Origin: a virus
Taxonomy: Duplodnaviria > Heunggongvirae > Uroviricota > Caudoviricetes
Direction: 5' to 3' (one strand)
Virus record (IMG/VR): IMGVR_UViG_3300045996_000470
Span: 1 to 34,666 of that record
DNA length: 34,666 nt
A program made the translations under genes and the position numbers. Shown here piece after piece: positions 13,291 to 27,958 of this stretch. Below the pieces are notes generated by a model. The model made no database searches. It saw only the letters and a program-made list of their open reading frames with translations, and was not told the DNA's origin. The first letter of the stretch is position 1, and each line of letters opens with the position of its first letter.

Positions 13291-13293
13291 ACT

Positions 13294-13737: not shown

Positions 13738-14142
13738 ATGAGTCGTTCTTATAGAAAAAACGTTTTTAGTAGCATAGTTTGCTGCGGTTCTCACTCTATG
13801 AAACAGTGGAGAACACGGGAAAATCGTCGCCTACGTCATAATGCCAAGCAGATTATTAATATTTGCGAGAATTATGACAACCTTATCATTCCAGTTCTAA
13901 ATGATTACGATACCCTTTGGGGCAGTCCCCAAGATGGGCGTAAACGATATATCCCTAAACCTGCGTTGAATCAATGTGAACTTGATTTACAACGTTATCT
14001 TATAAGTTCCTTCCGTTGGTATGGAACGATTAGTGAAGAAAGGTTAGATAAACTTGTAAACAGCTTTAGACACGGAGGAAGAGACTGCGAGTGCTATTCC
14101 AACAAACGCCACTGTTCGTATTGGAAAATAAAGAGAAAATAG
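13738..14142 (+). CDS. Basic hypothetical protein (MSRSYRK-type), 134 aa, TAG stop
   Basis: AGGAGG SD; ORF track. Confidence 0.75.
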   Translation: MSRSYRKNVFSSIVCCGSHSMKQWRTRENRRLRHNAKQIINICENYDNLIIPVLNDYDTLWGSPQDGRKRYIPKPALNQCELDLQRYLISSFRWYGTISEERLDKLVNSFRHGGRDCECYSNKRHCSYWKIKRK

Positions 14143-14143
14143 C

Positions 14144-14172
14144 TTGACAGAATTCCTTTACTGTGCTATCCT
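14144..14172 (+). promoter_or_regulatory. Sigma70-type promoter for the tRNA-Ile/Thr pair
   Basis: TTGACA-N17-TATCCT with TG extended -10. Confidence 0.6.
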
Positions 14173-14184
14173 TCAGAATTCAAT

Positions 14185-14259
14185 GCATAGTTAGCTTAGT
14201 GGGAAAGCCCAGAGCTGATAACTCTGTGAGACTAGGTTCGATTCCTAGGCTATGCACCA
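14185..14259 (+). tRNA. tRNA-Ile(GAT)
   Basis: GCATAGT/GCTATGC, A73, CCA; CAGAG-CTGATAA-CTCTG. Confidence 0.9.
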
Positions 14260-14264
14260 ATTAA

Positions 14265-14334
14265 GCCTATGGTACTGGGTACGTAGAAGTTTCGTAAACT
14301 TCAAACCGGAGTTCGACTCTCCGTGTAGGCTCCA
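14265..14334 (+). tRNA. tRNA-Thr(CGT), 70 nt, miniature D-arm
   Basis: GCCTATG/TGTAGGC; D-arm GTAC-TGG-GTAC; GAAGT-TTCGTAA-ACTTC; CCA. Confidence 0.7.
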
Positions 14335-14346
14335 AATTATTGATTT

Positions 14347-14379
14347 AAGTCCATTAGAAATAATGGACTTTTATTTTTT
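14347..14379 (+). terminator. Intrinsic terminator
   Basis: AAGTCCATTA-GAAA-TAATGGACTT followed by a T-tract. Confidence 0.85.
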
Positions 14380-14388
14380 CTTTGTAAC

Positions 14389-14418
14389 TTGACTTCCTTT
14401 AAGTAAAGCAGCTATAAT
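14389..14418 (+). promoter_or_regulatory. Sigma70-type promoter of the tail-fibre gene
   Basis: TTGACT-N18-TATAAT; ATG 8 nt downstream. Confidence 0.65.
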
Positions 14419-14426
14419 GATTTACT

Positions 14427-17400
14427 ATGGCTATTTATCTCACTACTCAAGAATTAAGACAAGGCAGTTTAGGATTCAATTTAGGACTGCAATTCCATAT
14501 GCCGGGAAACTATAAACCCACGATTTTTGATGTGTGGCAAGTCAAAATAGTTTGCCCCGATGGGACAATCTTATTCAAAACAGATGATATAGGTATCGAC
14601 CATAAAGCAACAATTCCCACTATTTTTGTTCCCATCGTTGATTATGATTTAATTTTAGCAGGAACGTATTACTATCAAGTTTCCTTAATAACTGGGGGAG
14701 GTCTCGTTAATTCTTCTGTAGAATCTTTTGAAATTGAGCCTAGCATTCAAGAACAATTTGAGTACAGTATAATCTCTAGTAATTTTGGTCATTTTCCTAT
14801 TTACACAGTTGGAGGGGCTTTGGCTTCTTCCAATTTGCGTGTAGATGAAAACACTGCTTTGAATTATTCTGGAGGGGGAGCAGTTTTTAACGGGCAAGTC
14901 ACCTTAGCCGACGAAGCTTATGACCCTGTGTGGAATGGAAAGCTGGAAGCAGCAACTAAAAACGCAATTTATGACAAATTTCAGTCTTTAACTAAAGCAG
15001 ACGTAGGACTGGGGAATGTAGACAATACTTCTGATGCCAATAAACCTGTATCTATTGCCGCACAAGCTGCTCTTAATCTTAAATCCGACCTAGCAGGAGC
15101 TACTTTTACGGGGGCAGTCAATGTTCCTGATGAAGCTTATGGCGCTTTGTGGGAAGCTAACTCATCCGTTCCAACTAAAAATTCTATTTATGACTTAATA
15201 ACTTCTAATGCCATAGTAGGAAAATTCCTACACGCCTTTGATACAACAATAGATGGACAGACTTCTCCTTGGCCAGTAATTGCTCCTAGTGTTATACCAG
15301 AAAGGAAAATGGGGTTTGGTAGAGGAGGCATTAATCCTGATGGTTCAGGAGCAATTGCTCATATTTTAGTGCTTAATAGTGGGTATGGGTCAGCAGGAGA
15401 GTTGACAGACCATTATCAAGCCGCTTTGGCTGTGGCAGCGTCCCCTTTTACTTACGCTATGAGAGTCCTCAAAGCTCGTGGAGATGCTTCTACTTATGGA
15501 ACTGCTTATGCTAATGTGGTTTTAAATTTAAACACTGAAGAACCAACAACTATAAATTATTTACCTAAGTGGACAGCCCTTGAAGGGACAAGAATAGGAA
15601 GCTCTGATGTAGAAAATGTTAGTTTAGGAGTAATAAGAGTTCATAGAAGTGCCTCCGTTTATTCTCAAATCTGGTGCCAGACTAATGGAAGTACAGCTTT
15701 TTCTATCGTCGGTACGGGTAGTCCTCTTTTTAGTTTTAGTCACCCCGTTTCCATACAAACATCCGTTAGAATTAATCCGGGAACATTTAATCCCGGAACT
15801 TATAGTATAGATGCATGGAATGGAAATGCGGGTCCAACTCCTTTTGTTGCAGGAACTTACCTTGGAAATATGGATGGAGGAACTCCCCGACCTCCTGACC
15901 CTGCTTTAATTTTATCTAGGCGTGGAACTCCTAGTATAGCTAGGGATAACTACGCTGAATTTAAACTTGTCAGGTATGAAACTACTGGAGGAGGGGCACA
16001 GCACCCAAGAACCAGAATGGACATTGCTTTAACTCACACTGAAACAGATTCTGTGGGAGTAGATGTAATGTCTTTAAGAAGTGACGGACGAGTGGGAATA
16101 AATACAGTCACTCCTGCTTATATGCTTGAGGTAGTTGCTAAATCCACAACTGTGAGTGTTCTTAATGCTTCTGCTTTTAGTTCTAGTGGATACAATGCTA
16201 GGTACAGCGTACAAACTTCAGGGGCTGCGTGGTCTCATTGGATTGAAGACGGAGCATTTGGAGCAGATACAAATGCTTTTGTGTGGGATTCCACTGTCGG
16301 AGGTGGAGGTAGGGTTATATTTAACCACTTGGGAAGACTGGGACTAGGTCTAGGGTATGTTCCTGTGTTGGCGTCCATTCACGCGAGAGGAACTGGAGAC
16401 CATTTGAGACTAGAATACGATGGCTCTAATCGTATGTTATTAACTGTAGGGTCAACTGGAACTGTGACACTAGATGCAGTAGGTTCAGGTGCGGGGTTTG
16501 TATTTTCCGACAGTGTAACCGTTCCGGATGAAGTTTATGGAGTGGGATGGGACGGCAATCTGTCAGTTCCTACCAAGAATGCTCTTTACGATTTAATAAC
16601 CGCAACTACTTACAACTTCGGTCCAGTGGGTGATATAGACTTGTGGTACTTAGACCCCGCACCGTGGATATCTGGTTTGGAATCTCCTGTTTCGATTTCA
16701 ACTGGGACAACTGTATATGCTGTAACGGACAGTTTTGCCGGGCTAGAGCTTATCTCAGAGTTGACTGGGACGGGTGCGAGTAAGTTTTACATTGGGTCGT
16801 TGAATAACATCAATGTCCGAGGCGACCATACCAATAGTTGGATTTACGGCTTTTACAGTCTAGCGAACAATAGGTTCGCAACTGGAAGCGGAACCAAGAT
16901 AATTGGAGCTAATATAGCGGCACAGGTCGAAGCGGCTGCGGCCAGTGTTGTAGGAGCTAGTATCGGGGCAATTCGTGGAAACATTAATAGCACTCCCCTA
17001 ATTACTGGGTTAGAGGTCGTAGCGTATAACGGTTATTCTAATGCAACAGAATTAATTGCCCAGAAAATTACAATTGGAGGGCAATCATCACCAGCAACTG
17101 TTGCCCTTGGAAAAGCGTTACAGATTAGAGCAATTAATAGCGGTGGAGCACACGCATGGACGGAATTACGAGGCATATCCTTGGATACATGGACGTGGGG
17201 AGGAACAGAAACATGTGCCTTAAGTTATGGAATTTATGCAGATGCAACTATAGATAAAGGAACTACCAAATATTTTATTTATTCCCTTTCTACGAGTCCA
17301 AGTATATTCACTGGTTCTATAAGTGTTCCAGATGCGGCGTATGGAGCGGGCTGGGACGGTTCGTTAGAGGTTCCGACTAAGAATGCTGTTTATGATAAGA

Positions 17401-18401
17401 TTGAGGCGTTGATAATAGGAGGGGGTAGCGGAGACGCCGTCCTTGCTGGACAATCTGGGGGACAAATCCTACACGGTGGAACTGATGCAGGAGACGACTT
17501 AACTTTACGCTCAACATCACATGCTACTAAAGGTTCTATTTTTATTGGAGCAGCATCAGCATATGACCATGTGAACGAGAGGCTGGGAGTGGGTACTCTC
17601 GCCCCAGTGTCCTCGTTGGAAATAATCTCGCCAATGAGTACCCAAGCTTTCAAGGCGACAGGAACTCAATTGACTCCTGCAAATGGGGCAGGAAGTGGAA
17701 CCACGGCTGGAAACTTTATGGCTATAACTGCACCGGCAGGTCAGGCATCGTCAAGCACGACGGGTAGTACCTTCGGAGGGCAGGGAGGACTGATAACAGT
17801 TAATGCGGGTGTTGGAGGAGCGCATTCTGGAATTCCAGCCTCTGGCTTTACTAGAGGAGGAGCAGGAGGTACTCTTACTTTTACGGGAGGTACGGGAGGA
17901 GCAAATACAGCAGGCAGTGGAGATAATAGAGGGGGCACAGGTGGAGGAGCCACTGTGTCGGGAGGAACGGGCGGTGCTACAAATGGTGCTGGAGCAGCAG
18001 GCAATGGCGGTGGTTTGACGTTATTCGCAGGAGGCGGAGGTAATGCTACCGCTGCGGGCGGTACAGCAGGAACAGGCGGTGTTGTGGCTATAAGCGGTGG
18101 AGCGGCTGGAGTGGCATCGGGCGGGGCTGCGGGTTCAACTCACGGTGGAATACGAATGGGAGACTTGGTCAACTTTAATTCTTTTATAGTTATAGGGCAC
18201 TCTACAATTACGATAGGATTCTTCGGAGCGGCGCCTGTAGTGCAACCCAACGGGACTGGAGAGACCACGGGATTTACGGCCGGCGCAGGAACGCCTGTGT
18301 TGGACGATTCAACTTTTACAGGAAACGTTGGAACTAAAGCGTATAGAATCTCTGATATTGTAAAAGCCCTTAAAAACCTAGGGTTGATAGCTTCCTCGTA
18401 A
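14427..18401 (+). CDS. Tail fibre / receptor-binding protein, 1324 aa
   Basis: DVGLGNVDNTSDANKPVS tail-fibre motif; GRVGINTVTP and RLGVGTLAP fibre motifs; four PDEAYG..W...PTKNA.YD repeats; Gly-rich C-terminal part. Confidence 0.85.
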   Translation: MAIYLTTQELRQGSLGFNLGLQFHMPGNYKPTIFDVWQVKIVCPDGTILFKTDDIGIDHKATIPTIFVPIVDYDLILAGTYYYQVSLITGGGLVNSSVESFEIEPSIQEQFEYSIISSNFGHFPIYTVGGALASSNLRVDENTALNYSGGGAVFNGQVTLADEAYDPVWNGKLEAATKNAIYDKFQSLTKADVGLGNVDNTSDANKPVSIAAQAALNLKSDLAGATFTGAVNVPDEAYGALWEANSSVPTKNSIYDLITSNAIVGKFLHAFDTTIDGQTSPWPVIAPSVIPERKMGFGRGGINPDGSGAIAHILVLNSGYGSAGELTDHYQAALAVAASPFTYAMRVLKARGDASTYGTAYANVVLNLNTEEPTTINYLPKWTALEGTRIGSSDVENVSLGVIRVHRSASVYSQIWCQTNGSTAFSIVGTGSPLFSFSHPVSIQTSVRINPGTFNPGTYSIDAWNGNAGPTPFVAGTYLGNMDGGTPRPPDPALILSRRGTPSIARDNYAEFKLVRYETTGGGAQHPRTRMDIALTHTETDSVGVDVMSLRSDGRVGINTVTPAYMLEVVAKSTTVSVLNASAFSSSGYNARYSVQTSGAAWSHWIEDGAFGADTNAFVWDSTVGGGGRVIFNHLGRLGLGLGYVPVLASIHARGTGDHLRLEYDGSNRMLLTVGSTGTVTLDAVGSGAGFVFSDSVTVPDEVYGVGWDGNLSVPTKNALYDLITATTYNFGPVGDIDLWYLDPAPWISGLESPVSISTGTTVYAVTDSFAGLELISELTGTGASKFYIGSLNNINVRGDHTNSWIYGFYSLANNRFATGSGTKIIGANIAAQVEAAAASVVGASIGAIRGNINSTPLITGLEVVAYNGYSNATELIAQKITIGGQSSPATVALGKALQIRAINSGGAHAWTELRGISLDTWTWGGTETCALSYGIYADATIDKGTTKYFIYSLSTSPSIFTGSISVPDAAYGAGWDGSLEVPTKNAVYDKIEALIIGGGSGDAVLAGQSGGQILHGGTDAGDDLTLRSTSHATKGSIFIGAASAYDHVNERLGVGTLAPVSSLEIISPMSTQAFKATGTQLTPANGAGSGTTAGNFMAITAPAGQASSSTTGSTFGGQGGLITVNAGVGGAHSGIPASGFTRGGAGGTLTFTGGTGGANTAGSGDNRGGTGGGATVSGGTGGATNGAGAAGNGGGLTLFAGGGGNATAAGGTAGTGGVVAISGGAAGVASGGAAGSTHGGIRMGDLVNFNSFIVIGHSTITIGFFGAAPVVQPNGTGETTGFTAGAGTPVLDDSTFTGNVGTKAYRISDIVKALKNLGLIASS

Positions 18402-18439
18402 GCACTAAACTTTTAGAACACAGGACTTGGTTCAACCTA

Positions 18440-18468
18440 TTGACTTAGTCATTAGTTTGTGTTAAAAT
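18440..18468 (+). promoter_or_regulatory. Sigma70-type promoter
   Basis: TTGACT-N17-TAAAAT; TTG start 6 nt downstream. Confidence 0.6.
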
Positions 18469-18474
18469 TAAAAA

Positions 18475-18927
18475 TTGAGCAGAATTATGAAATTACCTTA
18501 CAGACGATTATTGAACAGTATTACGGCGTTTAGAGAATTACAGGAGATTAAATTTCCTCCTAGAACTTCTCTGGATATTTATAAATTAGGTAAATCTTTG
18601 GACAAGGAACTTGAAACTTATCAAGCTATGCAGAGAGAGCTTTATAAGAGATACGAAGTTCCTGAGAAAGGGCAAGGCTACGACTTAGCTGCCCTTAAAG
18701 AAGACGAAGCTTCAAAATTAATAGCAGACATTGAAGAACTTATGGATGCAGAAGCGGACGTTAAGGAAATGGAAATCCCGTTGGAAATTTTCGAACAGAA
18801 CGGAGTTCCTATTTCTACTAATCTACTTGTAGCCCTTGACTGGCTCATTAAGATTGGGGATGAAAAAGAAGAAGCTTCTATCACAGAAGAAAAAGAAGAG
18901 AAAGCAGAAGCAGCAGTTAGTGATTAA
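18475..18927 (+). CDS. Putative tail-fibre-associated chaperone-like protein (DUF1617-like), 150 aa; start may be ATG 18487
   Basis: Helical acidic protein directly after the tail fibre; family call is by recollected resemblance only. Confidence 0.5.
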   Translation: MSRIMKLPYRRLLNSITAFRELQEIKFPPRTSLDIYKLGKSLDKELETYQAMQRELYKRYEVPEKGQGYDLAALKEDEASKLIADIEELMDAEADVKEMEIPLEIFEQNGVPISTNLLVALDWLIKIGDEKEEASITEEKEEKAEAAVSD

Positions 18928-18929
18928 GT

Positions 18930-19277
18930 ATGCCAAATATAGCAACGAGCATAATTCCACAAGGCAGTCATACCTTTAATTTGGGATTAACATTTGTAAT
19001 TCCGGGTTATGCCGATGTTTTATACCATGATTCAGGAGTTCCGGACACTTGGGAAGTTAGGGTTGTTACTCCGGAAGGGGTTTTATTAGTAAAAACCTCC
19101 GGAATTACATTTCCTACTCCGGAGGCACCACAAATCTTTTTTCCTATTACTACAGGAGACTTGGATAGAGCAGGAACCTATTATTATCAGGTTACTAAAA
19201 CAACTGGTGGTGCAAAGATTAAGTCCGAAGTTAGTATGTTTACAGTGGAGGAAAGCGTACCGTCGCTTGCATTTTAA
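18930..19277 (+). CDS. BppU-like beta-sandwich protein, paralogue of the tail-fibre N-terminus
   Basis: FNLGL.F..PG...W.V..V.P.G.LL.KT...DL..AGTYYYQV shared with aa 1-105 of 14427. Confidence 0.65.
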   Translation: MPNIATSIIPQGSHTFNLGLTFVIPGYADVLYHDSGVPDTWEVRVVTPEGVLLVKTSGITFPTPEAPQIFFPITTGDLDRAGTYYYQVTKTTGGAKIKSEVSMFTVEESVPSLAF

Positions 19278-19280
19278 GAT

Positions 19281-19643
19281 ATGCCATACCCAACAATGGA
19301 CATTGGGGCTAGCCCCACAGCAGGAAAAACAAATGCTTATATTCCTTTGCTTATAGAGGGTGTGGACTTATATCGTTGGCTAGTAGATACCGCTGGAACA
19401 TTCACCGGAAAGCTAAAAGGGACTTTAATTAAACCCGATGCCTCTACGGTTAGCAAGGTTTGGGCAGCTTCTGATTCTCCTATTCTTCTAATGAATACGG
19501 AGCCTAAGTATATAAAGGTACTTTTAGAGACAACAGATATAGCAGCAGCAGGGACGTACCAATTCGTTGCGGAGTTTAAACAAGCAGATGGTTGGCTTGT
19601 AGCGCCTCCGGTATCGTTCACAGTGATAACAGCAACAGTTTAA
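19281..19643 (+). CDS. BppU-like beta-sandwich protein, 120 aa
   Basis: LIKPD...TTDIAAAGTYQF...F.V motif similar to the neighbouring gene. Confidence 0.55.
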   Translation: MPYPTMDIGASPTAGKTNAYIPLLIEGVDLYRWLVDTAGTFTGKLKGTLIKPDASTVSKVWAASDSPILLMNTEPKYIKVLLETTDIAAAGTYQFVAEFKQADGWLVAPPVSFTVITATV

Positions 19644-19673
19644 TGTCAGTGACCACTAGAGATTCATAATAAG

Positions 19674-19702
19674 TTGACTTTTATGAATCATTATGGTAAA
19701 CT
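19674..19702 (+). promoter_or_regulatory. Promoter of HNH cassette (leaderless), -35 box inside an inverted repeat
   Basis: TTGACT-N17-TAAACT; GATTCATAA/TTATGAATC arms at 19661-19669 and 19681-19689. Confidence 0.6.
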
Positions 19703-19708
19703 GTTGAA

Positions 19709-20146
19709 ATGAAACACTGCTACAGATGCAAAAAAGATAAGCCTCTAGAAGATTTTGGCGACCACCGTAAAAGGAAGGACGGTAAACAGACTCAATGCAA
19801 GGCGTGTAGAAGACAAAGACAGAAAGATTGGTATAAAAATAATGCCAAAGTTCAGTATCAAAGAACGAGGGAAGGAAAAACCACTTCTATACGAAAAGCT
19901 AGGGAATTTGTTACAAGGTTTTTAAAGAAAAATCCTTGCGTAGATTGCGGAGAAAAGGATTACGTTGTTTTAGAGTTCGACCACTTAGAACCTAGCTTGA
20001 AATTTAAGGAAATTTCTCATATGGTTCATGTTGGCTATGGCATAGAGTCTATTGAAAAAGAGATATCCAAATGTCAAGTGCTTTGTGCTAATTGCCATAG
20101 AAGAAAGACTGCAAAACAATTTAATTGGTATAAAGCAACCAATTGA
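19709..20146 (+). CDS. Free-standing HNH homing-type endonuclease, 145 aa
   Basis: N-terminal CxxC...CxxC; CVDCGE...LEFDH...CQVLCANCHRRKT; TGA stop overlaps the first bases of tRNA-CAT. Confidence 0.85.
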   Translation: MKHCYRCKKDKPLEDFGDHRKRKDGKQTQCKACRRQRQKDWYKNNAKVQYQRTREGKTTSIRKAREFVTRFLKKNPCVDCGEKDYVVLEFDHLEPSLKFKEISHMVHVGYGIESIEKEISKCQVLCANCHRRKTAKQFNWYKATN

Positions 20147-20226
20147 CAGTGACCACAGGTAACGAAAGTGGAGCAGAGTCTCATAAACTCTAGCGGGCAG
20201 AGGTTCAACTCCTCCCACTGTCACCA
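20145..20226 (+). tRNA. tRNA-CAT (elongator Met or lysidine-type Ile2)
   Basis: GACAGTG/CACTGTC, A73, CCA; AGAGT-CTCATAA-ACTCT; G1-C72 pair, so not an initiator. Confidence 0.8.
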
Positions 20227-20233
20227 ATTTTAT

Positions 20234-20575
20234 ATGACTACAGCCCAAAAGAAAAGAGCTTTACGGGCACAAATTCGTGCTAAGAAAGCTATCAAATTTA
20301 CCTACCAACATGACCCAAAAGGTTCTGACCCTAGAACTGGGAATCCACATACATTAGGAATATCTACAACGGAAAAATGGGCTGTTAGAATCTATCAAAC
20401 AAATGGCCCTAGTACGAGGGGTCTAGTCGGTAACAATTCTCCTGAAGATTTTAGGTTTTTTTTGTTGGAAGACATTGATGGTATTGTTGAACAATCCACA
20501 GAATTTGAAGTGCATCCTGCGTTTAAGAAGGGAGATAAACTATTTTCCAAGATTGATGTAGAAGTGCAAAAATGA
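20234..20575 (+). CDS. Stand-alone WYL-like domain protein, 113 aa
   Basis: IKFTY...R..NPH.LG.....WAVRIYQ.....FRFFLLEDI pattern; start moved to the ATG after the tRNA. Confidence 0.6.
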   Translation: MTTAQKKRALRAQIRAKKAIKFTYQHDPKGSDPRTGNPHTLGISTTEKWAVRIYQTNGPSTRGLVGNNSPEDFRFFLLEDIDGIVEQSTEFEVHPAFKKGDKLFSKIDVEVQK

Positions 20576-20600
20576 TTTTCTGAATATAACAGGGGTTTCA

Positions 20601-20987
20601 ATGCAAAATAACATATTCGTTTTCGGGTCAAATACCGCAGGGCGTCACGGAGCAGGTGCTGCCCGCCGCGCACGTTTAGCTTACGGCGCTAAGTATGGGC
20701 AAGGAAAGGGATTACAGGGACGGTCTTATGCTATTCCTACTAAAGATAGTTCTTTGAAAACATTACCTATTGGCAAAATTTCCTCTTATATAAAAGAGTT
20801 TAAGGAATTTGTTGCGCTAAATCCTGACAAAGAGTTCTATGTAACAGCTATAGGAACTGGGCTTGCAGGACTTAGTCACGAACAAATAGCTCCATTGTTT
20901 GAGAATTCTCCTCTAAATTGTGTGTTTCCTAAGACTTGGGAAACATATTTGGGAGCTAAGTATCGGTACTTTACCGAAAATCTATAG
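20601..20987 (+). CDS. A1S_2505-family (macro-like) phage non-structural protein
   Basis: IFVFGSNTAGRHGAGAA..A...YGA.YGQG.GLQGRSYAIPTK...FYVTAIGTGLAG motif. Confidence 0.8.
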   Translation: MQNNIFVFGSNTAGRHGAGAARRARLAYGAKYGQGKGLQGRSYAIPTKDSSLKTLPIGKISSYIKEFKEFVALNPDKEFYVTAIGTGLAGLSHEQIAPLFENSPLNCVFPKTWETYLGAKYRYFTENL

Positions 20988-21004
20988 GAAGTGAGGTTAA
21001 TAAA

Positions 21005-21571
21005 ATGAGAAAATTTAGAAATATTGTGATGATGTTTGCACTCATCTTAGCGGTTTCGTTGTCGGGTTGTGGGGATGATTCCCCCAAGATGCCGGGGAAT
21101 ACGGTATACACTCCCCACCCAATACCAACTGTGACCCCCTTTGTTCCTCAATCAGTAGCAGGGAAAATTAATATACAGTCCCCCGTTGTGTTAGACTCCT
21201 CTACAATTGAAGGTATGAACGCTGCCTTCACACAGCTTTTTTCGGAAGCCAAGTCCAGAGGTTACACCAAGTACGTAGGTCATTCGGATTACACTGTCAT
21301 AGTGAGAAATGATTGCCAATTAATTAACGGAACAATGGCTTGGAAGGAATACGTCCCTGATTATGGAGAGATTTGGCAAGCGGAACAGGTCAGGATATCT
21401 AGCAACAAAGTTCAGACTTTTCAAATATGTAAAGATGTTTCTCAGAATATGAGCAACACTACTAGATATGGTGCAGAGCATATCATTCTGTACTTTAACA
21501 ATAGACCGGAGTTTGAAAGAACTAAGATTCACACAGATGCTCCGGAGACTTGGCATCCTATCATCAGGTAG
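21005..21571 (+). CDS. Putative lipoprotein, 188 aa (TAG stop)
   Basis: LAVSLSG-C lipobox followed by a Pro/Thr-rich linker. Confidence 0.75.
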   Translation: MRKFRNIVMMFALILAVSLSGCGDDSPKMPGNTVYTPHPIPTVTPFVPQSVAGKINIQSPVVLDSSTIEGMNAAFTQLFSEAKSRGYTKYVGHSDYTVIVRNDCQLINGTMAWKEYVPDYGEIWQAEQVRISSNKVQTFQICKDVSQNMSNTTRYGAEHIILYFNNRPEFERTKIHTDAPETWHPIIR

Positions 21572-21576
21572 GGTGC

Positions 21577-21699
21577 TTGACAAATAGCGGGGGTTAGTGT
21601 ATACTCTTAATATGATTTTAACAGTGAATACAGTTTAACCCTTGCAAGTAGTCTGACGGTGACGACACCCTAGGACTATGTTCTGGGGCGTTTTTATTT
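21577..21699 (+). promoter_or_regulatory. Candidate ribosome-mediated attenuator 1
   Basis: TTGACA-N17-TATACT; leaderless ORF MILTVNTV*; alternative hairpins TAGTCT/AGGACTA versus CCCTAGGAC/GTTCTGGGG plus T-tract. Confidence 0.65.
21612..21638 (+). CDS. Putative leader peptide MILTVNTV
   Basis: ATG at the predicted +1; codons ATT TTA ACA GTG AAT ACA GTT TAA. Confidence 0.55.
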   Translation: MILTVNTV

Positions 21700-21933
21700 A
21701 TGCTGGAATTACTAATAGACGAAGAAGATTATTTGATAAACATAAAACAGCTTAAAGACTTTGCAGAAAGTCAGGGAATTCCCTTTGATGGTTCTTCTCG
21801 AAAAGTTGTTGAAGTAGCATTAACAATGATGATTGCCACAGAGCTAGATGCCGATGCAGTTGTAATGCTAGGAAAATTGATTTATAATGTAGGTTACAGG
21901 GACAATAATTTTAAGACTCTGAACATACACTAA
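21700..21933 (+). CDS. Hypothetical protein, 77 aa
   Basis: ORF track; starts right after the terminator T-tract. Confidence 0.65.
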   Translation: MLELLIDEEDYLINIKQLKDFAESQGIPFDGSSRKVVEVALTMMIATELDADAVVMLGKLIYNVGYRDNNFKTLNIH

Positions 21934-21938
21934 GAAAT

Positions 21939-22025
21939 GCCTGTGTTCCTCGTGTTGGCTAGAGGCACTGTCTTGTAAGCAGTCGAGCGAAAGCGTCGGG
22001 GGTTCGATTCCCCTCTCAGGCTCCA
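21939..22025 (+). tRNA. tRNA-Thr(TGT) with GCGAAAGC variable-arm hairpin
   Basis: GCCTGTG/CTCAGGC; ACTGT-CTTGTAA-GCAGT; GGTTCGATTCC; CCA. Confidence 0.8.
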
Positions 22026-22032
22026 GATTTAT

Positions 22033-22110
22033 TCAAGCGGAGCACGTAAGTATGTTGCGGCAGTCTGTTAAACTGCGTCGAAGGTGGAGCGTTACCACTC
22101 GCTTGAGCCA
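22033..22110 (+). tRNA. tRNA-Asn(GTT) with AGCGTTA T-loop
   Basis: TCAAGCG/CGCTTGA, G73, CCA; GCAGT-CTGTTAA-ACTGC. Confidence 0.8.
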
Positions 22111-22128
22111 TTACAGTATGGTTATAAC

Positions 22129-22158
22129 TTGCAATGTTATAGCCATATTTGTTATACT
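22129..22158 (+). promoter_or_regulatory. Promoter of HNH cassette (leaderless), -35 box inside an inverted repeat
   Basis: TTGCAA-N18-TATACT; TATGGTTATAAC/GTTATAGCCATA arms at 22117-22128 and 22136-22147. Confidence 0.6.
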
Positions 22159-22164
22159 ATCTAA

Positions 22165-22521
22165 ATGCTAAAAGAAAAGTATGTAGATAGAACATGTAGA
22201 ACTCACGGTCTTACGGAATACGTTTTAGATTATCGTAATTCTTACCGATGCAAAAAATGTAGAGTAGATGCAGTAACGAAGAGACGAAGAGTTCTTAAAC
22301 TTAAGGCAGTTGAGTATAAAGGTGGAAAATGTCAGAGATGTGGTTATAGTAAGTGCGTCCAAGCCTTACAGTTTCATCATACAGACGATAACAAAGAGTT
22401 TACTATTGCCAGAAAGGGAGTTACTCGTTCTTGGGAAAAAGTAAAAAAAGAAATTGATAAGTGTATGCTAGTGTGTGCTAATTGTCACGCAGAAATACAC
22501 GCAGAAAAATATAATGTTTAA
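22165..22521 (+). CDS. Free-standing HNH homing-type endonuclease, 118 aa
   Basis: CQRCGY.KC..ALQFHH...CMLVCANCHAEIH; stop abuts tRNA-Val. Confidence 0.88.
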   Translation: MLKEKYVDRTCRTHGLTEYVLDYRNSYRCKKCRVDAVTKRRRVLKLKAVEYKGGKCQRCGYSKCVQALQFHHTDDNKEFTIARKGVTRSWEKVKKEIDKCMLVCANCHAEIHAEKYNV

Positions 22522-22598
22522 GCGCTTCGGACTGTGGCTGGCTAACAATCTCGTTTACACCGAGAAAATGCGGGGTTCGATTCCTCGGAGGCGCACCA
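22522..22598 (+). tRNA. tRNA-Val(TAC)
   Basis: GCGCTTC/GAGGCGC, A73, CCA; TCTCG-TTTACAC-CGAGA. Confidence 0.85.
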
Positions 22599-22617
22599 AC
22601 TTTAGGAGGATAAAGTT

Positions 22618-22719
22618 ATGGCGATAAGAGATATAGCAAAAGCAGGCGCACTTACTTGGCTTTTGGGTGGAGGGTTCTTGATGTTCCTTCTCATCATGTT
22701 GTTCATGTACGGTTGTTAA
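22618..22719 (+). CDS. Small single-pass membrane protein, 33 aa
   Basis: AGGAGG SD; MAIRDIAKAGALTWLLGGGFLMFLLIMLFMYGC*. Confidence 0.65.
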   Translation: MAIRDIAKAGALTWLLGGGFLMFLLIMLFMYGC

Positions 22720-22725
22720 GTTTAT

Positions 22726-22801
22726 TCCAGTGTGGGCTAATTGGTAAGTCGGGAGATTGTTAATCTCTACGATTTCGGTTCAAATCCGAACGCTGGAGCC
22801 A
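22726..22801 (+). tRNA. tRNA-Asn(GTT), canonical
   Basis: TCCAGTG/CGCTGGA, G73, CCA; GGAGA-TTGTTAA-TCTCT; GGTTCAAATCC. Confidence 0.9.
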
Positions 22802-22808
22802 GTTTTAT

Positions 22809-22858
22809 TCGGTGAAATATTAACTTCTATTTAGGTGTAAGTCCTAAACGCCGAGCCA
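22809..22858 (+). other. tRNA-like minihelix (acceptor stem plus T-arm plus G-CCA, with no D or anticodon arm)
   Basis: TCGGTG/CGCCGA-G-CCA; TTTAGG-TGTAAGT-CCTAAA. Confidence 0.5.
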
Positions 22859-22900
22859 GTTTATAAAAAAATGTTATAATGTTCGTGGAGGATTTTATCC

Positions 22901-23347
22901 ATGAACAAAGCAGATAATTATGTTTCTCTTAAGGAACATGTGGCGGCTTTAAGAAAAGCTGACCATCAATGGTTAGTGGAACGTGACCGAAGGTATGCAG
23001 CAGAGCGTGCAGCCGATGCCGCAGCTCTTGCAATTAAAGAGTTGGCAGACAAAGAGGCTCGTGGTTTAGCGAGGGATATTCAAACTTATAAAGACGAAAA
23101 AGCTAACGAACTTCGTGAGCAAATTAGTAGCGAAAGAGGACTGTACTCTACGAAAAGCGATATGATAGCCGCAGTAGAAAAATTTGAGACAGCCTTAAAG
23201 CCTTTAAATGCTTTTATTGCAGGAGAACAGGCTCGGGCAGCAGGAGCAAATTTTTGGTGGTTTATTATATTCGGTTTGATTGCTGCTACAGGAACATTCA
23301 TAGCTATTACCGCTGCTGTCATCGGTCTAGTAATGTATTTAACATAA
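22901..23347 (+). CDS. Coiled-coil protein with C-terminal transmembrane helix, 148 aa
   Basis: GGAGG SD; hydrophobic C-terminus FWWFIIFGLIAATGTFIAITAAVIGLVMYLT. Confidence 0.75.
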   Translation: MNKADNYVSLKEHVAALRKADHQWLVERDRRYAAERAADAAALAIKELADKEARGLARDIQTYKDEKANELREQISSERGLYSTKSDMIAAVEKFETALKPLNAFIAGEQARAAGANFWWFIIFGLIAATGTFIAITAAVIGLVMYLT

Positions 23348-23359
23348 TTGGAGGAAGTT

Positions 23360-23488
23360 ATGAAACTGTTTGCTACTTCTAAAAAGAAATCTAAGACCAA
23401 GAAAAAGAAGGGAACTTCCAAAGCTAAAACTAGCAAGTCTTCGAAGAGAAAGAAGAGAACCAAAAAGAAAGTGAAGTGGGGGTACTAA
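23360..23488 (+). CDS. Very basic Lys-rich microprotein, 42 aa
   Basis: GGAGG SD; MKLFATSKKKSKTKKKKGTSKAKTSKSSKRKKRTKKKVKWGY*. Confidence 0.65.
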   Translation: MKLFATSKKKSKTKKKKGTSKAKTSKSSKRKKRTKKKVKWGY

Positions 23489-23490
23489 CC

Positions 23491-23649
23491 ATGCCTTTAA
23501 CTAAGAAAGGAAAGAAAATTAAACGTGCTATGCAGAAACAGTATGGCAAGAAGAAAGGATTAAAAGTTTTCTACGCTTCTAGGAATGCCGGTAAAATCAA
23601 AGGTGTTGAAAAGAAAAGTAGGAAGAAGAAAGGTAGGAAAAAGAAATGA
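23491..23649 (+). CDS. Very basic Lys-rich microprotein, 52 aa
   Basis: MPLTKKGKKIKRAMQKQYGKKKGLKVFYASRNAGKIKGVEKKSRKKKGRKKK*; ATGA overlap with the next gene. Confidence 0.7.
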   Translation: MPLTKKGKKIKRAMQKQYGKKKGLKVFYASRNAGKIKGVEKKSRKKKGRKKK

Positions 23650-23834
23650 GAATAAGTAATCAACTTAGAGACGTAGATAGACACTACCTAAACAATTTAA
23701 TCGTCAGTGGACTCGGAGAAATTCCGGACAAGGATGGTAAGGTATCCTCTAGAGCTACGCATAAATTTGTGCTCGAAAAGGGGTTTATTGTTGCGGCAAT
23801 AAAGATAATGAAAAAAGAGGGACATAAAAAATGA
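23646..23834 (+). CDS. Hypothetical protein, 62 aa
   Basis: ORF track; ATGA overlaps at both ends. Confidence 0.65.
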   Translation: MRISNQLRDVDRHYLNNLIVSGLGEIPDKDGKVSSRATHKFVLEKGFIVAAIKIMKKEGHKK

Positions 23835-24178
23835 CTTTAGCACTCGTGTTCATATTATTGGCTGCTGCCGTAGGCACAGCATTAGGAGTAGAAACTTTAG
23901 TAATGGCTGTACTTGGAGCATTCGGAACGATAATAGTTCAAGGAATCAAGAAATACAGCGGGGCAAACGGAAACAGGGCACTAAACATTACGGTTGGTGT
24001 GTCCGTGGGACTAGCGCTTATGGGAGCATTTGCAACAAAGGCTTTCACAGGAGCAGATGGAGTAACTAATTGGGCTAGCATACTTAACGGAGCATTCGTG
24101 GTATTTGGCGTGGCGACTCTAGCATACAAGTACTTGCTTTCAAAGGACACAGAAATAGTTTCTGAGCCGCCTGTTTAA
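23831..24178 (+). CDS. Small multi-pass membrane protein (holin-like), 115 aa
   Basis: 3-4 hydrophobic helices; function inferred only. Confidence 0.6.
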   Translation: MTLALVFILLAAAVGTALGVETLVMAVLGAFGTIIVQGIKKYSGANGNRALNITVGVSVGLALMGAFATKAFTGADGVTNWASILNGAFVVFGVATLAYKYLLSKDTEIVSEPPV

Positions 24179-24196
24179 CTTCAGGTTTGAGGGTAC

Positions 24197-24341
24197 TTGA
24201 CAAAACCTAAATTTAGGTGTAATATAATTAAATGATGAATTTTTCAACTATAGCCAAGATTAAATCTGAATAACTACTTTGTGGTTTGGCTATAGGTGTA
24301 TTCCCTTCCAGACCGTGTGTTTGGAGGGGATTTTTATTTTT
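24197..24341 (+). promoter_or_regulatory. Candidate ribosome-mediated attenuator 2
   Basis: TTGACA-N17-TAATAT; leaderless ORF MMNFSTIAKIKSE*; 1:2, 2:3 and 3:4 hairpins plus T-tract. Confidence 0.7.
24232..24273 (+). CDS. Putative leader peptide MMNFSTIAKIKSE
   Basis: ATG at the predicted +1; core codons ATA GCC AAG ATT AAA. Confidence 0.55.
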   Translation: MMNFSTIAKIKSE

Positions 24342-24346
24342 AGGGG

Positions 24347-24374
24347 TTGACTTTTCCTGAAAATGTGTTAAGAT
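24347..24374 (+). promoter_or_regulatory. Possible internal promoter
   Basis: TTGACT-N16-TAAGAT. Confidence 0.45.
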
Positions 24375-24381
24375 AAAAAAG

Positions 24382-24521
24382 ATTGATAGTGGAGGCTAAG
24401 ATTGATAATCACTCCAACTCCGATGAAGAGGCTAATCTGCCTTCTAGAACCCGAAAGGGGACTAGGGTTATACGATAAGAGAAGAAGCTAGCACTTCGCC
24501 GTGCCGTGCTGTGGTCGGAGC
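24382..24521 (+). ncRNA. Candidate structured RNA upstream of tRNA-Ala
   Basis: TGGAG/CTCCA, CTCCGA/TCGGAG, GAAGAGGC/GCCTTC, CTAG-CCC-GAAA-GGG-CTAG and GCAC/GTGC helices. Confidence 0.4.
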
Positions 24522-24533
24522 AAAAAAGATTAA

Positions 24534-24609
24534 GGGGTCATCCAATATTGGCATTGGGTTTTGATTTGCAATCAAAAATCTGAGAGTTCGATTCTCTCTG
24601 GCTCCACCA
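24534..24609 (+). tRNA. tRNA-Ala(TGC)
   Basis: GGGGTCA/TGGCTCC with G3:U70, A73, CCA; TTTGA-TTTGCAA-TCAAA. Confidence 0.85.
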
Positions 24610-24701
24610 ATTCATTTCTATAGAAAGAAAACTGTTCGCGTTCGACTGATGGCGTGAAGACATAAAGCGGTAAGAGTCCGAATCAAGGTCATAGAATTTA
24701 A

Positions 24702-24786
24702 GCCCTTATGTGGAGAGTGGGATTCCAGCGGTCTTTTAAACCGATGCCATAAGGCGGGCGAGGTTCGATTCCTCGTGGGGGCACCA
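24702..24786 (+). tRNA. tRNA-Lys(TTT) with GCC-ATAA-GGC variable arm
   Basis: GCCCTTA/TGGGGGC, A73, CCA; CGGT-CTTTTAA-ACCG. Confidence 0.8.
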
Positions 24787-24789
24787 TAT

Positions 24790-24865
24790 GGGAGTATGGG
24801 GAAAGTAGTATCCTAGGAGCCTTTTAAGCTTCGGTTCTCCGTGCAAGTCGAGAGTGCTCCTACCA
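24790..24865 (+). tRNA. tRNA-Lys(TTT), second copy, atypical T-loop TGCAAGT
   Basis: GGGAGTA/TGCTCCT, A73, CCA; GGAGC-CTTTTAA-GCTTC. Confidence 0.75.
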
Positions 24866-24871
24866 AATTAT

Positions 24872-25159
24872 ATGGACAGATTAAAGAGACAAGCAAATTG
24901 GTGTAGGTTTGTTAAGCAAAGATTCAAAGAATCTGTCCAGACTTCGGACGGAAGGTGGAGAATGTTCGGCCCAGTTCACGTTAAATCCGAGGATTACGGC
25001 AAAGATTTCGGAGGACTCGTTCCCTATACTAACAGATACGTTAAGGCTGTTAAGAGAGAACTAAAGATTGAATACCGAGCAGCCAAGCGTGGCGAGAAAC
25101 AAGAGGTAAGGAAGGAAATAGAAAGAATCCTTCTAGAAGAAAATGAAACTGCCGTGTAA
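24872..25159 (+). CDS. Basic hypothetical protein, 95 aa
   Basis: In frame with the ORF-track call at 24854; ATG 6 nt after the tRNA CCA. Confidence 0.65.
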   Translation: MDRLKRQANWCRFVKQRFKESVQTSDGRWRMFGPVHVKSEDYGKDFGGLVPYTNRYVKAVKRELKIEYRAAKRGEKQEVRKEIERILLEENETAV

Positions 25160-25424
25160 ATATACTCCCTTAACCTTTGTCGAAAGGCGTAACGTTAGGG
25201 GAGAGTATATCAAACAACAAAAAGGATTGTGTTGGTATTGTCAAGGCAAGTTGGATGAAGAACCTCCGGAGAAAATCCTTAAGTATAAGGTCACTCCGAG
25301 GCTGTATCCAAAAGGATTTTTTGATAACCCTATTCACTTGCACCACGACCACGTAACGGATATGACGTTGGGAGCAGTTCACGCATATTGTAATGCAGTG
25401 CTTTGGAAATATTATGGGCAGTAA
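25143..25424 (+). CDS. Endonuclease VII-like (His-Me finger) protein, 93 aa
   Basis: QKGLCWYC...LHHDHVT....GAVHAYCN. Confidence 0.6.
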   Translation: MKLPCKYTPLTFVERRNVRGEYIKQQKGLCWYCQGKLDEEPPEKILKYKVTPRLYPKGFFDNPIHLHHDHVTDMTLGAVHAYCNAVLWKYYGQ

Positions 25425-25429
25425 TTTAT

Positions 25430-25513
25430 ACTAGCGTGACAGATGGGGATGTAGACAGCCGATTACTGTCGTTCGAAAGAGCTATGAGAGTTCGAATCTC
25501 TCCGCTAGTACCA
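25430..25513 (+). tRNA. Atypical tRNA, anticodon GAT (Ile), with C33/U37 and long variable arm
   Basis: ACTAGCG/CGCTAGT, A73, CCA; GACAG-CCGATTA-CTGTC; V-arm GTTC-GAAA-GAGC. Confidence 0.6.
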
Positions 25514-25517
25514 TTAT

Positions 25518-25934
25518 ATGAGCAAAAGATTCAACTCTGAAATCCTTAATCAGTTAATCAACGAGCGTTGGAACGATGAAGGATTAAACATTAAGGTAGA
25601 GTATAAAGATAGCTCACGATGGGCTGGAACAGCAACTATAAAGAAACTGATTAAAGTTAAGAAGGGCTTTAGTTACGAAGAATTAGCTGATGAAATAATC
25701 CAGTATATAAAAGATTGTTTGAATCAGAACGCAGGTACGAGTCCACTAGTTACCTTTCGTAAATGTCCTGATGGAAATTATTTTAACGCAAAGTTTGTTT
25801 GTGGTAGTGATGGAAAGTTTTGGAAAGAAGTTTACGCAAGAGTAACTTCAAATATGATTTATGCCCCAATGACAGAGATAACATTTAACGATGGGGATGA
25901 TTGGGTATTAGATTACTATAGAATGCCGTATTAG
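25518..25934 (+). CDS. Hypothetical protein, 138 aa (TAG stop)
   Basis: ORF track; wedged between two tRNA genes. Confidence 0.7.
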   Translation: MSKRFNSEILNQLINERWNDEGLNIKVEYKDSSRWAGTATIKKLIKVKKGFSYEELADEIIQYIKDCLNQNAGTSPLVTFRKCPDGNYFNAKFVCGSDGKFWKEVYARVTSNMIYAPMTEITFNDGDDWVLDYYRMPY

Positions 25935-25936
25935 AC

Positions 25937-26023
25937 GGGGGTATGTGGAGAGTGGGATTCCTGCTGGCTCTTAACCAGACAAGCGAAAGCTTAGACAAGG
26001 TTCGATTCCTTGTGCCCCTACCA
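25937..26023 (+). tRNA. tRNA-Lys(CTT) with AAGC-GAAA-GCTT variable arm
   Basis: GGGGGTA/TGCCCCT, A73, CCA; CTGG-CTCTTAA-CCAG; D-arm nearly identical to the tRNA at 24702. Confidence 0.8.
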
Positions 26024-27122: not shown

Positions 27123-27871
27123 TGAATTTAAAACAATACAGCAAGACTAAGGATTGCTACCGAAAACGTGGTGGATTTCTTATCGGCTTAAACGGTGTAG
27201 CTCAATCTGGAAAAGATAGTGTAGGACGTATTTTAGTACAGAGTCATGGATTTGAAAGACTTGCGTTTGCAGACGCTTTAAGGAAAGGACTCTACGACTT
27301 TAATCCTATTGTAGATATTAGGGTAGAACTAGAGCATGAAACCTTTTGGGAATGGCTTAGAGGTAAATCTGGTGGGTATACTACTAGAATTGTTAGGCTT
27401 AGGGAGTTAGTAGACGCGATAGGCTGGGATGAAGCTAAGGTTAAATACGATGAAATCCGGGTTGGGATGCAGAAGTATGGTACTGAAGCGGGGAGAAATA
27501 TTCATGGAGACGATTGCTGGATAAACATCATTAAGAGACAAATTGAGAATACTTCAGGCAAGAGTTATGTCATTACTGACATGAGGTTTGAAAACGAATT
27601 GGAAGAAGTTGAGAAGCTGGGCGGGCTGTTGGTACAAGTCCAAAGAGAAGGAGTCACTTCAGTTAATAATCATATTTCGGACAAGGTTTTGGATGAGAAT
27701 AGGTTTCACGCTATCATAGAGAATAACGGCACTCTGGGTGATTTAGAAGATAAGGTGGGAAGGCTGCTGAATGACCTTAACCCGTTTAAGAATACAGCAG
27801 GAATTTCTTCCTTTTCCAAATTTATAGAGAACAAAATCCCGCAAAAGCCCTTGACAAAGTACGGATATTAG
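27122..27871 (+). CDS. Deoxynucleoside monophosphate kinase (phage type)
   Basis: IGLNGVAQSGKDSVG P-loop; LAFADALR; MQKYGTEAGR; VITDMRFENE. Confidence 0.9.
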   Translation: MNLKQYSKTKDCYRKRGGFLIGLNGVAQSGKDSVGRILVQSHGFERLAFADALRKGLYDFNPIVDIRVELEHETFWEWLRGKSGGYTTRIVRLRELVDAIGWDEAKVKYDEIRVGMQKYGTEAGRNIHGDDCWINIIKRQIENTSGKSYVITDMRFENELEEVEKLGGLLVQVQREGVTSVNNHISDKVLDENRFHAIIENNGTLGDLEDKVGRLLNDLNPFKNTAGISSFSKFIENKIPQKPLTKYGY

Positions 27872-27879
27872 TATAATAT
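27851..27879 (+). promoter_or_regulatory. Promoter of the CUA tRNA
   Basis: TTGACA followed by TATAAT (15 nt spacer) or TAATAT (17 nt spacer). Confidence 0.55.
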
Positions 27880-27888
27880 ATAGGATAA

Positions 27889-27958
27889 GCGCGGTCTAGG
27901 GTAGGCGATGGGTCTCTAAAACCCTGTAGCGAGGATTCGAACTCCTCATCGCGCGCCA
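27889..27958 (+). tRNA. Amber suppressor tRNA(CTA), 70 nt, compact Pyl-like geometry
   Basis: GCGCGGT/ATCGCGC, G73, CCA; GGGT-CTCTAAA-ACCC; GAGGA-TTCGAAC-TCCTC; tiny D-arm. Confidence 0.75.

Follow-up and report, generated by a model that had tools for sequence, protein, structure and literature searches.

How do bacteriophages regulate the tRNA genes that they carry? To our knowledge, this is not known. The main proposals for tRNA carriage itself (see, for example, PMC11555353) are compensation for codon usage, substitution for host tRNAs that have been degraded and evasion of tRNA-cleaving defences. The question of regulation is raised by a locus (positions 21577–22801) in a 34,666-nucleotide (nt) stretch of phage DNA, termed here the window, which constitutes the first 34.7 kb of the 121,203-bp IMG/VR virus record IMGVR_UViG_3300045996_000470 (Caudoviricetes; ~77% complete, 41% G+C). 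At this locus, a short leader containing an 8-codon open reading frame (ORF) and a terminator precedes ORF77, a small protein gene, and a group of tRNA genes; an original prediction, made from the sequence, had interpreted the leader as an attenuator. The unit of promoter, mini-ORF, antiterminator and terminator is real and statistically unusual. The leader is conserved and predicted to be bistable, carries a leaderless mini-ORF and stands before ORF77 and the Thr and Asn tRNA genes. A ribosome-sensing transcription attenuator is its most likely interpretation, at about even odds.

The unit lies on the plus strand, as do the other features of the locus, and begins with the sigma70-type promoter TTGACA-N17-TATACT (21577–21605). 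This sequence is an 11/12 match, belongs to the phage's own promoter family and was the best site in a promoter scan of positions 17000–26000. An ATG at 21612, exactly 6 nt past the −10 element, opens the leaderless mini-ORF (21612–21638; ATG ATT TTA ACA GTG AAT ACA GTT TAA), which encodes MILTVNTV and ends with a UAA stop at 21636–21638; promoter, spacing and reading frame are as originally predicted. Region 1 (CCCU, 21639–21642) directly follows the stop and is an upstream copy of the terminator 5′ arm, able to pair with GGGG at 21685–21688. The antiterminator core is a hairpin (21648–21679, −12.9 kcal/mol) in which GUAGUCU (G21648–U21654) pairs with GGACUAU (G21673–U21679) around GGUG-ACGA-CACC; it was recovered within the minimum-energy fold, and its 5′ arm begins 10 nt past the stop, close to the distance originally given. 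The intrinsic terminator (21664–21699), with the stem CCCUAGGAC/GUUCUGGGG and a U5AU3 tract, was likewise found where it had been predicted, the terminator scan returning a 9-bp stem at 21668–21688 (extendable to 21664–21692) followed by CG-T5AT3. ORF77 (21700–21933), which encodes a conserved small acidic protein with no assigned function, starts at the base next to the end of the U-tract and has a coding score of 0.28 in frame, compared with negative scores in the other frames. The gene for tRNA-Thr(UGU) begins 5 nt past the ORF77 stop.

Folding predictions indicate that the antiterminator and the terminator are mutually exclusive, as the original prediction had held. The minimum-energy fold of the transcript 21610–21700 is not the terminator; it is the antiterminator core together with a closing helix between CCCU (21639–21642) and GGGG (21685–21688), and this helix of region 1 contributes ~7.5 kcal/mol to the alternative fold. 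The long alternative fold has a predicted energy of −20.4 kcal/mol, compared with −12.5 to −17.7 kcal/mol for the terminator. When a ribosome was simulated by rendering the 5′ part of the leader unpairable, the predicted probability of terminator formation rose from 0.02–0.06 in the free leader to 0.87–0.99 with region 1 masked, and reached 0.99 with masking from 21640 onward. The element that a terminating ribosome would cover thus differs from the one first proposed: in these folds it masks mainly the CCCU that pairs with GGGG, and merely abuts the AGUCU arm of the antiterminator, which the original prediction had assumed to be blocked.

This competition is rare by two measures. Dinucleotide shuffling of the 52 nt upstream of a fixed terminator lowered the probability of terminator formation below 0.5 in 1.2% of shuffles and below 0.1 in 0.2%, the native value being 0.05. 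Furthermore, the genome contains 16 convincing terminators, and the one at this locus alone is out-competed by its upstream sequence, with a mean pair probability of 0.02 compared with at least 0.95 for the others.

Conservation of the unit was assessed in metagenomic relatives. Homologs of the large terminase TerL with 63–75% identity are present in metagenomes; one TerL-relative contig, L025, extends to the locus, and the contigs L024, L026, L027, L028 and L029 stop short of it, leaving the leader uncovered. An exhaustive profile search with the window ORF77 and the 80-aa L025 homolog as queries returned eight further homologs, from which six contigs were fetched. The orthologous locus was thereby recovered in seven metagenomic contigs (L025, L031, L032, L033, L034, L035 and L036). 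Five of these, L032 to L036, carry the full unit in the order promoter, mini-ORF (MIxT[A/V]N..), region 1, AGUCY, GGACU, terminator and ORF77. The ORF77 proteins of these five and the window are only 32–55% identical to each other, such that the conservation in relatives on which the original prediction had staked itself extends to divergent phages. Mean nucleotide identity is 65% in the leader, compared with 53% in the adjoining coding gene.

The promoter is conserved in L032, L033, L035 and L036, and the L034 contig begins inside it, with the −10 element alone visible. The ATG lies 6–7 nt past the −10 element in the relatives except L036; there, the −10 element is followed after 12 nt by an in-frame ATG and after 30 nt (18 nt beyond that ATG) by the conserved one. 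The leader peptides are 8 codons long in the window (MILTVNTV), L033 (MIKTANKI), L034 (MISIVNTN), L035 (MISTANKI) and L036 (MRSTANKN), and 11 codons long in L032 (MILTAITNKTI), which carries a 9-nt in-frame insertion. At all six loci a CCCUC-like region 1 sits directly 3′ of the stop and repeats the terminator 5′ arm. Two pentamers are invariant: AGUCY, 11–12 nt from the stop, and GGACU, towards the top of the 5′ arm in the terminator stem. As GGACU is invariant while its partner in the terminator differs between phages, its conservation argues for the other partner, AGUCY. The terminator hairpins of the relatives have predicted energies of −16 to −22.5 kcal/mol, and in all five the U-tract ends at the ATG of ORF77.

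The competing folds are also retained. When the nascent transcript is folded as far as GGACU, the antiterminator core is the minimum-energy structure in six of six leaders (−8.8 to −11.7 kcal/mol). Its inner hairpin is GGUG/CACC in the window; all five relatives have GGC/GCC there. The RNAalifold consensus consists of this core and the helix between region 1 and the terminator 3′ arm. Pairs of the alternative fold are standard in 95.5% of cells across the six leaders, compared with 23–59% when the partner is slid, and 93% of the region 1 pairing is kept. In every leader the two full-length folds differ in energy by no more than about 6 kcal/mol, which suggests that the element is bistable. In L033 and L036, as in the window, masking region 1 flips the leader to the terminator, the probability of which changes from 0.01–0.09 to ~0.9 or more.

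The mini-ORF lacks a Shine–Dalgarno sequence, and the plausibility of its translation rests on promoter–ATG spacing. All TTGAC[AT]-N16–18-TAnnnT sites in the 121-kb record were listed, and at most of these promoters an ATG ~5–8 nt past the −10 element opens a long ORF (28 such ORFs, 55–1324 aa). This genome-wide spacing suggests that the first gene of many operons is expressed from a leaderless mRNA. The ATG at 21612 has the same spacing as the long leaderless genes, and the 5′-terminal AUG is therefore a plausible start. The 28 long-ORF leaderless promoters, which end 4–9 nt ahead of the ATG, occur in the window at, for example, 7488, 14389, 19674 and 26218, and many lie on the minus strand of the record beyond 60 kb; internal genes do carry AGGAGG-type Shine–Dalgarno sites (e.g. 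before 22618 and 22901). Promoters that drive tRNA genes (8278, 14144 and 27851) have no ATG at leaderless spacing. These strong promoters lie 9–12 nt upstream of single tRNA or tRNA-like genes (8278–8390, 14144–14259 and 27851–27958) and thus appear dedicated, with nearly no 5′ leader.

Several features of the mini-ORF suggest that its reading frame is maintained. The ATG is held at leaderless spacing in the relatives, and the L032 insertion and the upstream ATG of L036 are both in frame. The stop codon varies between TAA and TGA, yet always adjoins region 1. Codon position 1, where A is retained, has 2 variable alignment columns, compared with 6 each at positions 2 and 3, and five of the seven invariant columns fall in one phase (p ~0.02–0.05, hypergeometric estimate). 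Codons of the form ANN make up 76% of the leaders, compared with 44% of the N-termini of the long leaderless genes. A remnant of a deleted leaderless gene was ruled out as the origin of the mini-ORF by the conservation of the 8-codon length and position across relatives.

The match between leader codons and downstream tRNAs, central to the original prediction, is by calculation unlikely to be due to chance. MILTVNTV matches the downstream tRNAs at five of seven codons at the amino-acid level, or four of seven under strict wobble, with a nominal p of 0.004 either way; Thr, Val and Asn codons together make up 19% of codons in phage genes. Among 814 short ORFs in the genome, 0.1–0.25% attain the same share of matches. 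The Thr and Asn parts of the match are kept in relatives and the Val part is confined to this phage, the conserved matching codons being Thr ACA/ACG and Asn AAU. The six leaders contain nine Thr codons, each of them ACA or ACG, both read by the UGU anticodon; these two account for 40% of Thr codons in phage genes. Thr and Asn together form 38% of residues in the six leaders, compared with 15% in the N-termini of the 28 long leaderless genes.

Wherever the sequence extends far enough past ORF77, as it does in the window, L032, L034 and L035, tRNA-Thr(UGU) and then tRNA-Asn(GUU) are present, and the tRNA-Thr(UGU) ortholog begins 0–8 nt after ORF77 in the three relatives. L032 has two Thr(UGU) and three Asn(GUU) genes 3′ of ORF77, L034 has Thr(UGU) and Asn(GUU) before the contig ends, and L035 has Thr(UGU), Asn(GUU), a Val(UAC)-like tRNA and a further Asn(GUU). 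In L033 an HNH cassette and then the contig end follow ORF77, and the L036 contig ends after ORF77. L025 and L031 form another ORF77 lineage (62% mutual identity) with protein genes, not tRNA genes, behind ORF77. At the L025 locus the promoter is the same, the leader is 73 nt long and contains a hairpin, and the 80-aa ORF77 homolog (40% identity, E = 6e-18) follows. Neither the homologous mini-ORF nor the AGUCY:GGACU complementarity is present in L025 and L031; that switch and tRNAs are missing together is consistent with a functional link between them. Upstream of the L025 leader, the lipoprotein gene has shrunk to a 19-codon signal-peptide remnant (L025:3642–3700).

Four tRNA genes had originally been placed in the window cluster, and three of these were confirmed: tRNA-Thr(UGU), which has a long variable arm (21939–22025; ARAGORN and Rfam), tRNA-Val(UAC) (22522–22598; ARAGORN, and 27.2 bits in Rfam, slightly under the cut-off) and tRNA-Asn(GUU) (22726–22801; ARAGORN, and 56.5 bits in Rfam). 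The fourth, an Asn(GUU)-like element at 22033–22111, did not stand as an intact gene. It is called by neither ARAGORN nor, even at E ≤ 5, Rfam, and it retains a cloverleaf fold and a CUGUUAA anticodon loop, with degenerate T and D loops. Canonical tRNA-Asn(GUU) genes occupy the corresponding position in L035 and L032 and align with this element, which is therefore a degenerate copy of tRNA-Asn(GUU).

From these elements the following mechanism is proposed. Promoter 21577 would start the RNA at or beside A21612, placing the 8-codon ORF at the 5′ end. In the nascent RNA the antiterminator core would fold first and sequester the terminator 5′ arm, after which two partners would compete for the terminator 3′ arm (..GGGG), namely region 1 and the terminator 5′ arm. 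A ribosome at the last codons or the stop would cover region 1 and abut the core, so that the terminator would form and transcription would end at ~21695–21699. With the ribosome absent, or held at codons 4–6 (ACA-GUG-AAU), region 1 would be free and both terminator arms would be locked; RNA polymerase would then continue into ORF77 and the tRNA genes. The gated operon would comprise ORF77, tRNA-Thr(UGU) and tRNA-Asn(GUU), possibly followed by the Val and second Asn genes. If the 3′ edge of the ribosome is assumed to lie ~15 nt from where the P-site codon begins, a ribosome at codons 4–5 leaves region 1 free, at codon 6 it reaches only the first base of region 1, and at codons 7–8 or the stop it covers region 1.

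The conserved Thr and Asn codons are read by the downstream tRNAs, and the likely signal would therefore be a shortage of usable tRNA-Thr(UGU) or tRNA-Asn(GUU). Such a shortage might be caused by poor host supply or by a tRNA-cleaving defence, and the outcome would be feedback on phage tRNA output. That a family of soil phages uses this minimal leader to sense the supply of the very tRNAs it controls, with hesitation leading to terminator bypass and more of those tRNAs, is plausible, although less likely than not.

Consistent with this gating, the leader promoter is the only conserved one from which ORF77 and tRNA-Thr could be expressed, and their transcription would therefore require read-through of the terminator. 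A promoter-like site (21860–21888, 10/12) inside ORF77 would, if active, undermine this requirement. Its TATAAT (21883–21888) stems from Ile-Tyr-Asn codons and is lost in the relatives through synonymous changes; being codon-derived and not conserved, the site is probably fortuitous, which helps the attenuator model.

A number of further observations weigh against attenuation or against the proposed signal. Covariation of the pairs is not above that of shuffles (270 of 500 equal it across the six leaders), a test made uninformative by the invariance of the paired pentamers. At equilibrium the terminator is favoured in all states of L032, L034 and L035, so that a switch is predicted in only three of six leaders. 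The alternative fold itself closes with a 4–5-bp GC helix abutting the U-tract and was scored as a terminator in the scan. With this helix directly before the U-tract, the alternative fold may itself terminate transcription. Two states would in that case not suffice, and the leader would need three, in which an untranslated leader would terminate, a stall at codons 6–8 would read through and completed translation would terminate. The original prediction had cautioned that it found no strong 1:2 helix; indeed, no hairpin of the trp 1:2 type that would pause polymerase and synchronise it with the ribosome was found, the ORF region being unstructured in the predicted folds.

The coding evidence has similar weaknesses. 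Each leader has merely 1–3 Thr and 1–2 Asn codons, with no tandem run. L035 carries a Val(UAC)-like tRNA downstream, but has Ala where the window leader has Val, and the Val match is therefore unconserved. Codon differences in the mini-ORF comprise 54 non-synonymous and 11 synonymous changes, such that the peptide sequence is not conserved, and the A-rich codons may just keep the leaderless 5′ end unstructured. The contrast with L025 and L031 represents a single evolutionary split. Finally, the promoter of the inserted HNH cassette (22129–22158) stands upstream of tRNA-Val and the second tRNA-Asn as well, confirming a reservation of the original prediction.

The original prediction also drew support from a supposed second, independent leader of the same kind, the unit at 24197. 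This unit consists of a promoter (24197–24225), a leaderless 13-codon ORF (24232–24273; MMNFSTIAKIKSE), a 10-bp hairpin that pairs ORF codons with 24287–24298, and a strong terminator (24302–24330). The terminator forms in every simulation (P = 0.98) with no competing structure, and a further promoter (24347–24374) lies behind it. With its constitutive terminator and bypass promoter, the unit resembles a stand-alone RNA of ~105 nt and not a switch; the argument from two leaders is weakened accordingly, and the 24197 unit lends little independent support to attenuation. A search of the genome for paralogous leaders showed that the 24197 unit has no more than the −35 region in common with the leader at 21577. 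Between the promoter at 24347 and a tRNA-Ala gene, ~160 nt (24375–24533) contain no ORF and no Rfam match, and may encode a structured non-coding RNA.

The 24197 unit is relevant to a different explanation for the leader, namely that it is a small-RNA gene, possibly of dual function. An abundant ~86–88-nt RNA would act in trans through its conserved, single-stranded A-rich 5′ part or the UAGUCUAAUGGC block, with the ORF incidental or of secondary importance and downstream genes expressed by read-through leakage. An unstructured A/U-rich 5′ end, hairpins and a U-tail match base-pairing small RNAs; the neighbouring unit (24197–24335), with a promoter, a constitutive terminator (P = 0.98) and a bypass promoter behind it, offers a precedent, and both the invariant blocks without covariation and the poorly conserved peptide would be accommodated. 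We consider this explanation unlikely, as the 3-nt periodicity, the in-frame L032 insertion, the stop that always adjoins region 1 and the ATG retained at leaderless spacing all point to translation. In addition, the leader promoter is the sole conserved promoter for ORF77 and tRNA-Thr, the conserved bistability is not needed by a simple small-RNA terminator, and no Rfam family is matched. A simpler possibility is an ordinary leaky, constitutive terminator that closes the upstream lipoprotein operon and damps the promoter, the antiterminator and CCCU:GGGG pairing being a longer hairpin and the ORF and its codons a product of chance. The GC helix found directly before the U-tract in both folds fits this possibility, as does the prediction of an equilibrium switch in only three of six leaders. 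Chance placement of the start codon is also conceivable: by our own calculation, ~14 strong promoters that open no long ORF would have an ATG at 5–8 nt about once by chance, and two are seen. Left unexplained are the conservation of the leader above that of the adjacent gene, the invariance of GGACU despite a changing terminator partner, the retention of region 1, ORF frame and stop in six divergent phages, and the joint absence of mini-ORF, antiterminator pairing and tRNAs elsewhere. A leaky terminator alone is thus distinctly unlikely.

Control by a factor would account for other aspects of the leader. A phage or host protein, or an RNA, could bind AGUCY/GGACU, or the folds could govern translation of ORF77 in place of transcription. 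Two invariant pentamers without covariation would be expected of a binding site, and ORF77, which starts after the U-tract without a well-spaced Shine–Dalgarno sequence, may depend on leader structure for its translation. Moreover, protein-controlled, promoter-proximal terminators are classical in phages, as exemplified by lambda PR′–tR′ with Q. A search of the 121-kb record, itself ~77% complete, found neither of two Q-family antiterminators (PF06530 and PF03589), other antiterminator families not having been searched. The invariant pentamers are, furthermore, complementary to each other and paired in the nascent-RNA minimum-energy fold of all six leaders, and the features of the mini-ORF would be left without explanation. 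Control by a factor, or of ORF77 translation, is thus very unlikely. Direct sensing of tRNA by a T-box was ruled out: there is no Rfam match (E ≤ 5 for the window, E ≤ 1 for the relatives), the leader is only 88 nt long, and a UGGC found in relatives is not present in the window.

The proposed attenuator shares features with several known systems. The leader-peptide transcription attenuators trpL, hisL, thrL, leuL and ilvL control amino-acid biosynthesis operons. As in those leaders, a promoter-proximal short ORF and a terminator precede the genes and an exclusive antiterminator is present; the position of the ribosome would likewise decide the fold, and the enriched codons may be tied to the controlled genes. 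The window leader differs in being leaderless and phage-borne, with 8 codons of which 1–3 are candidate regulatory codons and not in a tandem run, and in having tRNA genes in place of enzymes as its putative targets. It also has no 1:2 pause hairpin; instead, the post-stop segment pairs with the terminator 3′ arm (1:4), and the core takes the part of the 2:3 helix. T-box leaders, which are 200–300 nt long and use Stem I and a UGGN bulge for direct tRNA binding, similarly sense tRNA status and choose between terminator and antiterminator, in contrast with the 88-nt window leader, which has no Rfam T-box match. The lambda bar minigenes are very short phage ORFs that engage specific tRNAs; they carry Shine–Dalgarno sequences, unlike the leaderless mini-ORF, and their known effect is toxicity in Pth-defective hosts, with no indication of a regulatory switch RNA. 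In the lambda PR′–6S RNA/tR′ unit, a terminator ~100–200 nt past the promoter must likewise be overcome, but read-through needs the Q protein, of which no homolog was found here. A parallel in leaderless translation comes from mycobacteria, in which Canestrari et al. (10.1101/834739) described leaderless polycysteine short ORFs as attenuators whose stalled ribosomes unmask a ribosome-binding site. There, too, the operon opens with a short ORF that has no 5′ leader, and codon-specific stalling remodels the RNA and raises downstream expression. The mycobacterial leaders differ in that they respond to cysteine supply and control metabolic genes in a bacterium, whereas the competing structure in the window is an intrinsic terminator before tRNA genes in a phage. 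A search of the accessible literature library found no publication describing leader-peptide control of phage tRNA genes.

Other features of the window and its relatives were recorded during the analysis. The inserted HNH endonuclease cassette (22129–22521) has a leaderless ATG (22165) six nt beyond the −10 element of its own promoter, and it is not found at the same place in L035. Many class-I tRNAs within 9100–26023 (Arg, Thr-UGU, Met, Lys and Ile) are 82–89 nt long owing to stem-loop variable arms, and L034 and L035 retain the variable arm of Thr(UGU). An amber-suppressor-type tRNA (CUA anticodon; 27851–27958), which has its own promoter, may serve TAG read-through or recoding. The window copy falls below the Rfam cut-off (25.3 bits), and the gene is kept at the same place in L028 (387–462), L029 (1797–1874) and L030 (5937–6010), where ARAGORN labels it 'Pyl'. 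L030 is a more distant relative (TerL 54% identical) and also encodes a Ro60/TROVE–vWA protein among its tRNA genes (L030:4168–5919). On the minus strand of the 121-kb record, a perfect 20-bp inverted repeat (73880–73838) spans the −10 region, transcription start site and first codons of a 112-aa leaderless gene, and could be an operator or a 5′ hairpin.

The phage itself is known from environmental sequence. Near-identical DNA occurs in soil metagenome runs of several studies, no RNA run being listed, and the leader shows no differences among near-identical copies from four such runs, so that no population variation could be used. The nearest TerL among named phages is only ~37% identical to that of the window phage, and hence no cultured relative is known; INPHARED contained no close relatives, the HNH gene being the only match. 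Searches for related loci in IMG/VR and JGI metagenomes with the lipoprotein, TerL, Mom or an ORF77 alignment as query did not find a relative, and a word-based protein search with ORF77 returned only itself. With the phrog_2072 neighbour as query, 20 loci were returned, none of them syntenic, and their tRNA context was not informative. A back-translated MILTVNTV pattern had two matches in IMG/VR, both by chance within coding regions, and a DNA pattern of the conserved leader recovered no additional orthologs from metagenome and viral contigs.

The unit is 125 nt long and has six natural variants, making the proposed attenuation directly testable. If the proposal is true, the leader would be a cis-acting sensor that reads tRNA sufficiency via the ribosome and feeds back on tRNA transcription, a new use of classical attenuation. 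It would also constitute a compact, portable reporter of tRNA supply and would represent a leaderless ORF serving as an attenuator leader outside the Actinobacteria.

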